NCBI RefSeq assembly: GCF_003334315.1
Contig: NZ_QOWR01000038.1
From: Escherichia coli
GTDB taxonomy: Bacteria > Pseudomonadota > Gammaproteobacteria > Enterobacterales > Enterobacteriaceae
Reading direction: 5' to 3' (one strand)
DNA length: 45,313 nucleotides
Position numbers: made by a program. Of this stretch, positions 43,101 through 45,313 are shown in pieces. Positions within the stretch are counted from its first letter, which is position 1; each line of letters opens with the position of its first letter.

Positions 43101-45313
43101 GTCCATTTATTAGCGCCACCAACCAAACATCTTCAGGCGAATGAATTAATAAAAAAATAGCGGGCACTGCAAGAATTTTTGAGGTTATGCTTGAAATAGC
43201 TACTTTAGCCATTTCTTCCTTACCTTGAAATAACCAGACTGGAAATAGCATATTTCCTACCACTGCTGAAAAGGCAATGATTAAAACATATTGATATTCA
43301 CCAGTAAATACATGGTCAGCGATAGTCCAACATCCGGAGAAAATAAAAGCACACACAATCAAAATTAACTTGCATGCCATAACATTCCAATACGTTTTGC
43401 TTACAAGTTCAACATCGTCTCGAATAATTGATATTTTTTTTGTTATAGAAAGATTAAAGCCAAAGTCAACTATCAGAATTGAATACTGTATTATTGCAAG
43501 GGTATATCCATAGATTCCGTAACTGTATGGCCCCAGCACCTTTACAAGGTAGGGTAAAGTTAACAATGGTATTAGGTATCCAACCCCCTGAATACTTAAT
43601 AGCGAAAATATGTTTATTAGTACTTTCTTATTCATCCACTGACTCATTTATTCACGCTACCGCCCCTGGCTCAACAGCTACCAGTGCACTGCACAAAATT
43701 CAGTATGTCGTGGACCAGCCCCCACAAACCTTCACGTTTGCATCGAATCTCGCCCACCAATTTAGCCCACTATTTTGGGCGCAATCCCTGTGTAAGACAA
43801 GGAGAAATCCGGCATTTTTTATCAAAAAACACCGCGCAATCACTAATTTTAGTTGTTGTTTTTAAAAGCAAAAACGGCAGCTGCTGTGAAATGAGAGTTC
43901 CTCAACCACAATCATCTGCCGTTCTGTTACTCACCAACATTCCGTGTTGTTGCGTAGTGTCTTATTCTGAAAGCAGTTTCTCAATCCCTTTCCGGAACTT
44001 CGCCCCTTCTTTCAGGTTGCGCAGCCCATACTGGACAAACGCCTGCATGTAACCCATTTTCTTACCGCAGTCGTAGCTGTCGCCGCTCATCAGCATCGCG
44101 TCAACGGACTGTTTCTTCGCCAGCTCGGCGATAGCATCCGTCAACTGAATACGTCCCCAGGCACCCGGCGCGGTTTTTTCCAGTTCGGCCCAGATGTCGG
44201 CGGAAAGCACATAGCGCCCTACTGCCATCAGGTCGGAATCCAGCGTTTGCGGTTGGTCTGGTTTTTCGATGAACTCAACGATACGGCTCACTTTACCTTC
44301 TACGGTCAGCGGCTCTTTAGTCTGAATAACCGAGTACTCAGAAAGATCGCCAGGCATACGTTTCGCCAGCACCTGGCTGCGGCCTGTTTCGTTATAACGT
44401 GCCACCATCGCAGCGAGGTTATAACGCAGTGGGTCAGCGGATGCGCCATCGAGAATGATATCAGGCAGAACAACCACAAACGGGTTATCGCCAACGATCG
44501 GACGCGCGCACAGAATGGAGTGGCCCAGGCCCAGCGGCTGCGCCTGTCGCACGTTCATGATGGTTACGCCCGGCGGGCAAATGGACTGAACTTCCGCCAG
44601 CAGCTGACGCTTAACGCGTTGCTCCAGCAGAGCTTCCAGTTCATAGGAGGTGTCGAAGTGGTTTTCCACGGCATTTTTGGAGGAGTGGGTGACCAGGACG
44701 ATTTCTTTGATCCCTGCAGCAACAACTTCGTCGACGATGTATTGGATCATCGGCTTGTCAACGATCGGTAGCATCTCTTTAGGAATGGCCTTGGTGGCAG
44801 GGAGCATATGCATGCCCAGCCCGGCTACCGGAATGACTGCTTTCAAATTAACCATTATCGGGTAATGACTCCAACTTATTGATAGTGTTTTATGTTCAGA
44901 TAATGCCCGATGACTTTGTCATGCAGCTCCACCGATTTTGAGAACGACAGCGACTTCCGTCCCAGCCGTGCCAGGTGCTGCCTCAGATTCAGGTTATGCC
45001 GCTCAATTCGCTGCGTATATCGCTTGCTGATTACGTGCAGCTTTCCCTTCAGGCGGGATTCATACAGCGGCCAGCCATCCGTCATCCATATCACCACGTC
45101 AAAGGGTGACAGCAGGCTCATAAGACGCCCCAGCGTCGCCATAGTGCGTTCACCGAATACGTGCGCAACAACCGTCTTCCGGAGACTGTCATACGCGTAA
45201 AACAGCCAGCGCTGGCGCGATTTAGCCCCGACATAGCCCCACTGTTCGTCCATTTCCGCGCAGACGATGACGTCACTGCCCGGCTGTATGCGCGAGGTTA
45301 CCGACTGCGGCCT

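Follow-up and report, generated by a model that had tools for sequence, protein, structure and literature searches.

The 45,313-bp contig QOWR01000038.1 of the draft Escherichia coli assembly GCA_003334315.1, which is analysed here over its entire length (the window), ends within a copy of the insertion sequence (IS) IS1. The right terminus of this IS1 lies 5 bp upstream of the start codon of galF, and galF is followed by a JUMPstart element and an O-antigen gene cluster. An initial annotation of the window had proposed that IS1 could drive galF and, through JUMPstart, the cluster. The account which we consider likely in its entirety is that IS1 entered the spacer between wcaM and galF by simple insertion, that galF would be weakened, that the cluster would rely on signals of its own, and that the whole locus belongs to an ectopic block in which IS1 is a near-neutral hitch-hiker. 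The structural conclusions are firm; those on function we infer from the sequence.

Results and Discussion

The IS1-galF junction

44861..45313, minus strand: IS1, right-hand 453 bp (IS1 identity from the terminus; Pfam DDE_Tnp_IS1 on the called gene)
43962..44855, minus strand: galF, intact, 297 aa (TIGR01105 match; DNA 100% identical to native-context copies)
44853..44860, minus strand: target duplication of IS1, 8 bp (CGATAATG), right-hand copy, with the galF start codon inside it (from comparison of the window with the left junction on contig L041, see below, and with native sequence)

Read on the plus strand of the window, the right inverted repeat of IS1, GGTAATGACTCCAACTTATTGATAG, begins at 44861. 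The pentamer CGATA (minus strand; TATCG on the plus strand) at 44856-44860 makes up the whole gap between the IS1 end and the galF ATG (minus strand; CAT on the plus strand) at 44853-44855; on the minus strand the junction reads ...CACTATCAATAAGTTGGAGTCATTACC / CGATA / ATGGTTAATTTGAAA... These positions had been given in the initial annotation and were confirmed by reading of the sequence. Compared with a complete IS1 of another genome, 44861-45313 showed 99.3% identity over 453 bp, aligned from the first base. The 3' part of insB' (44876..45253) and galF are both on the minus strand and co-directional, as had been noted, the TAA stop of insB' being located 20 nt before the galF ATG. Likewise, the motif GGAG in the IS1 terminus, which had been placed at about 13 nt upstream of the ATG, was found 12-13 nt before it, and no other Shine-Dalgarno-like motif is present upstream. 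The possibility that translation of galF starts at a codon further downstream was ruled out: GalF matched the equivalog TIGR01105 (TIGR01105 / NF007516) over residues 1-297 of 297, with 671 bits at a cut-off of 659.2, and since this full-length match begins at residue 1, the ATG is the canonical start and not an upstream artefact.

Homology to native wcaM-galF sequence breaks exactly at the IS1 terminus (alignment A1). The junction is real, as this break and the reciprocal junction on a second contig make a chance join unlikely. Searches of 5,426 complete E. coli genomes, of PLSDB plasmids and of JGI metagenome contigs did not return the exact IS1-galF junction at 5 bp, and it was also absent from the loci first fetched for comparison (loci are designated with L and a number).

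The other end of IS1 and the native galF leader

A look-up with the native WcaM protein led to contig QOWR01000081.1 (L041) of the same assembly, which bears the reciprocal left end of IS1. The gene order on this contig is yiaW, yiaV, wcaK (from codon 9), wcaL, wcaM, the complete native spacer, the IS1 left end and insA; the left junction reads ...GGACACGATAATG / GGTGATGATGCC, or, in longer form, ...GGTGGACACGATAATG / GGTGATGATGCCAACTTACTG. The IS1 left end, GGTGATGATGCCAACTTACTGATTTAG, differs by one base from what we take to be the canonical left end, and the 5' part of insA (Zn_ribbon_InsA) has the same orientation as insB'. The 8-bp sequence CGATAATG is present on both sides of IS1 and as a single copy in native sequence; target duplications of IS1 are usually 9 bp and sometimes 8 bp long. 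These data point firmly to one IS1, which entered the wcaM-galF spacer by simple insertion with an 8-bp duplication including the galF ATG.

A GalF protein identical to the present one is specified by many public contigs. Native spacer sequence was taken from four native-context loci with 100% identical galF. Native copies of this galF read ...TATAAT..AGGTGGACACGATA-ATG, and wcaM-neighboured loci read ...AGCTATAATTCATCAACCGTATATAGGTGGACACGATA-ATG. Over the 1,256 bp comprising galF, the following spacer and the start of wzx, eight of ten loci were 100% identical to the window; the remaining two (L005, L013) differed by a 1-bp indel in the galF-wzx stretch. The TATAAT box and the ribosome-binding site AGGTGGA upstream of galF are also kept in K-12 (alignment A3). 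In this comparison with the reference wcaM-galF spacer, as the initial annotation had suggested it, the native loci and K-12 possess both signals, and the homology of the window stops at CGATA. The native leader had been regarded as displaced, which proved correct as far as its separation from galF is concerned, but the signals are not lost: the -10-like TATAAT and AGGTGGA are intact on the sister contig, where they lie directly beyond the IS1 left end and share the orientation of insA, insB and galF. They are now located about 776 bp upstream of galF, in the same direction.

The native galF promoter now faces insA. Behind the native ribosome-binding site, a mini open reading frame (ORF) of nine codons, MGDDANLLI followed by a stop, starts from the duplicated galF ATG and runs into the IS1 left end (L041 5539-5568).

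On the transcribed strand the order is now wcaM, TATAAT, the Shine-Dalgarno sequence AGGTGGA, the duplicated ATG with the mini-ORF, IS1 (left end, insA, insB', right end), CGATA and the ATG of galF, and then the terminator-like hairpin, the predicted operon promoter, JUMPstart and the cluster from wzx to manB.

Expression of galF across IS1

The activating mechanism on record for IS1 is a hybrid promoter, with the -35 box in the IS1 end and the -10 box in the flanking DNA (PMC9330008, PMC8764528; Prentki et al. 1986, as cited in PMC9330008). In ST131, IS1 raised transcription when upstream of afaA, lowered it for osmB and left it unchanged for ugd, according to the distance of the -10 box, and TTGGAG of the IS1 end was assigned the role of an outward -35 box (PMC8764528). 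In the window, a -35-like TTGGAG is present 8 bp from the IS1 right end; the -10 candidates at 16-18 bp after it, GTTAAT, TTAATT and TAATTT, fall at +4 to +11 of galF, i.e., in codons 2-4. At a lenient promoter threshold the only match at the junction was TCAATA-17-GATAAT, its -10 box overlapping the galF ATG, and a strict scan for sigma-70-like sites in 43600-45313 yielded none. Since the -10 box would be inside or over the galF start, and the transcript would begin within the ORF, an IS1 hybrid promoter cannot yield full-length GalF; as judged from this predicted geometry, a hybrid promoter serving galF is excluded. Of the proposal that IS1 drives galF, one part thus stands, namely that transcription must cross IS1, and the other, activation by an outward hybrid promoter, is unsupported.

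Deprived of a close-range promoter and ribosome-binding site, galF would be transcribed only by read-through over the 768-bp IS1, with the native galF/wca promoter and the promoter of IS1 as the two possible sources. The IS1 promoter is weak and under repression by InsA, a protein that binds both IS1 ends as well, and insB' is translated only through rare frameshifting. Polarity is a classical property of IS1 insertions, which is taken here as background and was not derived from this sequence. Since the native signals are intact and co-oriented upstream, read-through from the native galF/wca promoter would appear to be at least as plausible a source of galF transcripts as the IS1 promoter. In the strict signal scan no intrinsic terminator was detected between insB' and galF, the only hit in 43600-45313 being a weak AT-rich hairpin on the minus strand; C-rich, G-poor stretches suitable for Rho loading were not found in the visible 453 nt of IS1 sense RNA.

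Translation of galF would have to start from the IS1-borne GGAG at a poor spacing of 12-13 nt, or by rare re-initiation after insB'. Pairing with the anti-Shine-Dalgarno sequence was calculated as about equal for the IS1 GGAG (-5.9 kcal/mol) and the native AGGUGG (-5.8 kcal/mol), but 12 nt separate the paired duplex from the AUG at the IS1 junction, at the edge of the useful range, as opposed to 7 nt in the native arrangement. With read-through as the only source of transcripts and a poorly spaced GGAG, the output of GalF from the IS1-bearing copy is probably lower, by several-fold or more, and not necessarily zero. A 7-bp RNA helix over the start codon, CAUUAUC/GAUAAUG, was also considered as a feature of the junction; it was dropped, as the fold was no better than that of shuffled sequences (z = +0.92).

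Signals between galF and wzx

43860..43931, minus strand: terminator-like long hairpin, then UUUUUGCUUUU, just 3' of the galF stop (minimum free energy -33.4 kcal/mol; z = -3.9 versus shuffles)
43772..43800, minus strand: predicted O-antigen operon promoter, TTGTCT-17-CAAAAT (lenient scan and conserved block; no match in the strict scan)
43653..43691, minus strand: JUMPstart with ops (GGCGGTAGCGTG) (Rfam RF01707, 60.5 bits, gathering score 35, E = 6.8e-13)

The flanks of the hairpin, AACGGCAG/CTGCCGTT, are kept in K-12, and the block CCTTGT(T/C)T ... (A/C)A(A/C)AAT is kept in the galF-rfbB spacers of K-12 and the O100 strain EC12, which are divergent in other respects (both in alignment A2). 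JUMPstart/ops lies upstream of the first cluster gene. This order corresponds to the usual layout, in which a promoter dedicated to the O-antigen operon and an RfaH-dependent leader follow galF, and the mapped promoter of E. coli O7 reportedly agrees with it. Plasmid-borne copies of the cluster keep the galF-wzx spacer, yet have lost the 5' 60% of galF to IS26; the cut is inside galF, at window position 44330, in plasmid p3575-NDM-5, in Shigella dysenteriae 1012 and in several draft contigs. The O-antigen genes would be expressed from their own promoter and the RfaH/JUMPstart leader, independently of IS1. In view of the hairpin, the separate promoter-like block and the spacer kept in the IS26-truncated plasmid copies, the suggestion that IS1 drives the downstream cluster through JUMPstart is unnecessary and improbable.

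An ectopic 18.75-kb unit in yiaV

30903..32225, plus strand: ISAs1-family IS, 1,323 bp, ends CAGGGAAAA...TTTTTCCGTG; one end of the ectopic unit
30893..30902, no strand assigned: one copy of the 10-bp yiaV target duplication GGTAATGCAC; the other copy is on the sister contig beside wcaK codon 9

The window from 14000 to 30903 is ordinary E. coli chromosome, from xylR to yiaU, with 100% identity to many genomes, and not the his/gnd region. The 10-bp sequence GGTAATGCAC occurs once in native yiaV and in this assembly on both sides of an 18.75-kb block, which is inserted in yiaV and consists of the ISAs1-family IS, the cluster, galF, IS1, wcaM, wcaL and wcaK' (window 30893-45313 plus L041 1504-5745). 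The block contains a single copy of the ISAs1-family IS, and its far end is inside wcaK. Duplications of 10 bp were also seen at the other copies of this IS which were examined, namely at seven simple insertions and at one composite with glycosyltransferase genes inside it. Transposition units of the ISEcp1 type are made up of one IS copy and a surrogate far end, with a duplication around the whole unit. The block resembles these in its single IS copy at one end, its far end in wcaK and its 10-bp duplication, typical of the IS, around 18.75 kb; it is unlike them in the IS family and in the surrogate end, ...GCCGCAGGTGTG, which has only the terminal GTG in common with the true end, ...GATTTTTCCGTG. 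This arrangement suggests a transposition unit that has a single IS and uses a site within wcaK as its surrogate end.

A tentative reading, to which we would give somewhat less than even chances, is that the whole wcaK'-wcaL-wcaM-IS1-galF-cluster-manB-ISAs1 unit moved into yiaV as one piece, by means of the single ISAs1-family (H-repeat) element and the surrogate wcaK end. A look-up with the ISAs1 transposase returned 3,467 blocks, the element being too common to pinpoint a source; the yiaU-ISAs1 junction was not found in complete genomes, and a search of the literature for one-ended or surrogate-end transposition of ISAs1 elements gave nothing specific. Since the block is ectopic and IS-mobilised in yiaV, its galF is probably an extra copy, and the IS1 insertion, rather than serving expression, would most likely be a near-neutral hitch-hiker.

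Two further arrangements were observed. At about 1.563-1.571 Mb of CP058175.1 (L015/L016), two copies of this ISAs1-family IS flank about 5.6 kb of glycosyltransferase genes, with the 10-bp repeat GGTGCGATGC outside both IS copies; this is a composite transposon with polysaccharide genes. In the draft E. coli contig NKEV01000059.1 (L010 9081-9854), a partial wcaM, this galF and the cluster stand beside a fragment of bcsG; this would represent a second chromosomal site of ectopic location.

The O-antigen cluster and its distribution

32308..43647, minus strand: Wzx/Wzy-type O-antigen cluster, all ORFs intact, 100% identical to the annotated copy of p3575-NDM-5

The cluster consists of wzx, a GT2 gene, a gene for a Stealth-family protein, wzy (EpsG), a GT4 gene, gmd, fcl, gmm, manC, a second GT2 gene and manB. 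On p3575-NDM-5, an E. coli IncFII NDM-5 plasmid (L003), it is present with 100% identity over 11.3 kb, and a matching cluster, 100% identical in the stretches compared, was found in S. dysenteriae 1012 (L029), on a draft contig of plasmid-like character. Equivalent gene sets are contained in an 89-kb, probably plasmid record of Citrobacter portucalensis, in a second record of 87 kb, and in several chromosomal copies of Klebsiella sp. WP7-S18, for all of which the DNA comparison covered the galF-wzx stretch. The copies on the plasmid and in S. dysenteriae 1012, Citrobacter and Klebsiella are all bounded by IS26, IS1 or the IS2-like element described below.

NCBIfam gave no serogroup-specific match for Wzx, Wzy or the Stealth protein, and the source annotations name them generically. 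An origin from S. dysenteriae type 4, which had been guessed from strain 1012, was dropped, the cluster in that strain being plasmid-like and IS26-bounded. With regard to window 40645-41637 and 39557-40633, the cluster codes for the Stealth-family protein, a putative hexose-1-phosphate transferase, and it also contains GDP-fucose genes. Among the known ectopic or extra O-antigen loci with IS borders and a second galF are that of E. coli O62 and the unlocated O20, O57 and O60 clusters (PMC7685785); the last three are reported to lie elsewhere in the genome, and the present cluster may be one of them.

Other insertions at the galF edge and related systems

In another galF allele, IS1 of the same orientation ends 18 bp upstream of the gene; this was found in 11 complete genomes (EC12 and ten others; L001 6455-7240), and these insertions were the best junction-spanning matches among the 5,426 complete E. 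coli genomes. An IS2-like element (ORFs of 121 aa and 271/301 aa) ends 21 bp upstream of an identical galF in L005-L009 and L013, which include Klebsiella and Citrobacter records; its insertion point falls between the TATAAT box and the ribosome-binding site, and it represents a third independent IS event at the galF edge. Judging from these sequences, the 5' edge of galF is a repeated landing or breakage site of IS elements. A search of the literature for IS1 at galF gave nothing specific. In the EC12-type genomes, IS1 sits between a remnant of an O154-like cluster and the O100 cluster, i.e., two O-antigen clusters in tandem are joined by IS1.

Classical IS1 insertions upstream of genes (PMC8764528, PMC9330008) have in common with the present one intact termini, a short duplication, an AT-rich intergenic target and an outward TTGGAG. 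The present insertion is different in its distance of 5 bp to the ATG, in the lack of a usable hybrid promoter, and in its duplicated start codon, by which a decoy ATG remains downstream of the native ribosome-binding site. The ectopic locus of E. coli O89m (PMC6128206) is similar in that a cluster with galF and JUMPstart is located away from his/gnd, is IS-bounded, and has colanic-acid remnants (partial wcaM) and a second galF. Here, in contrast, Wzx/Wzy with GDP-fucose genes are present instead of wzm/wzt, the site is yiaV, IS1 is between wcaM and galF, and a 10-bp duplication surrounds the unit. Extra or relocated rfb clusters are known from Shigella (PMC10132075): on a genomic island in S. 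dysenteriae 16, on a plasmid in the provisional type BEDP 02-5104, and in S. boydii 20 with an IS at rfb and galF absent. These cases likewise show IS events at the galF edge and additional clusters on islands or plasmids; unlike them, the strain studied here is labelled E. coli, and its cluster spans E. coli, S. dysenteriae 1012, Citrobacter and Klebsiella.

Alternative explanations

That IS1 acts as an expression device, with an outward promoter or insAB read-through driving galF and, via JUMPstart, the O-antigen cluster, appears unlikely. Orientation is shared, and no intrinsic terminator between insB' and galF and no C-rich Rho-loading stretch in the visible IS1 sense RNA were found, but the hybrid promoter is excluded, its -10 positions being at +4 to +11 of the galF ORF, and the IS1 promoter itself is weak and InsA-repressed, with insB' made by rare frameshifting. 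The GGAG of the IS1 end pairs with the anti-Shine-Dalgarno sequence as well as the native site does, but at a spacing of 12-13 nt versus 7 nt. Activation of neighbouring genes through the outward -35 box of IS1 is documented (PMC9330008, PMC8764528); between galF and JUMPstart, however, there are a hairpin resembling a terminator and, separately, a conserved promoter-like block, and the cluster persists on plasmids without the 5' end of galF. The opposite idea, i.e., that IS1 was selected as an off-switch, additional GalF (a modulator of GalU) being harmful where the host already has galF, we consider quite improbable. It would be in keeping with an ectopic block in which galF is probably duplicated, and with three independent events which hit one galF allele in different hosts (IS1 at -5, the IS2-like element at -21, IS26 inside the gene). 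However, there is nothing unusual in an IS landing in an AT-rich spacer, the native spacer is retained in other copies that circulate in mobile contexts (L010, L012, L014), and galF is 100% identical to native copies, which leaves no time for decay and gives no sign of selection. Two GalF proteins coexist in O89m strains (PMC6128206), and a second galF in the present genome is presumed. An assembly artefact, with the IS1-galF junction as a chimeric contig end at a repeat, is extremely improbable: the contig does end inside a multicopy IS1, and the exact junction occurs in 0 of 5,426 complete E. coli genomes and in neither PLSDB plasmids nor JGI metagenomes, but the break is precisely at the IS1 terminus, 453 bp of IS1 are contiguous with galF, and another contig of the assembly provides the reciprocal junction, the matching 8-bp duplication and the missing native spacer.

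The preferred account, a simple IS1 insertion with a weakened galF and a cluster on its own signals, has to be weighed against several points which speak against it. Contigs 38 and 81 are linked through one IS1 by inference, from the duplication and the continuity of sequence, and the central 111 bp of IS1 are unassembled. The operon promoter and the terminator behind galF are predictions. The visible IS1 sense RNA is G-rich (C/G 0.67-0.95), and with no terminator and no C-rich stretch, read-through into galF may be efficient. In O89m, where IS rearrangements have taken place, proteomics nevertheless revealed both copies of GalF (PMC6128206), by which measure expression of galF could exceed the prediction made here.

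Significance

Taken alone, the junction is one more IS1 insertion beside a gene and fairly ordinary. It may serve as a worked example that closeness of an IS and shared orientation do not make a promoter, since the geometry excludes the documented mode of IS1 activation. The more novel lead is the ISAs1-bracketed mobile O-antigen unit. H-repeat elements have long been seen beside O-antigen clusters; if the movement of the unit as one piece is true, there would be evidence, at the level of footprints, that such elements can move an entire O-antigen cluster, promoter included, to new sites. This could explain the arrival of the cluster on plasmid or plasmid-like DNA of E. coli, Shigella and Citrobacter and in the Klebsiella chromosome, and the IS1 insertion would then retune a surplus galF. 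The ectopic cluster bears on the movement of serotype-determining loci between strains and genera, and also on in-silico serotyping, which presumes a single locus between galF and gnd.

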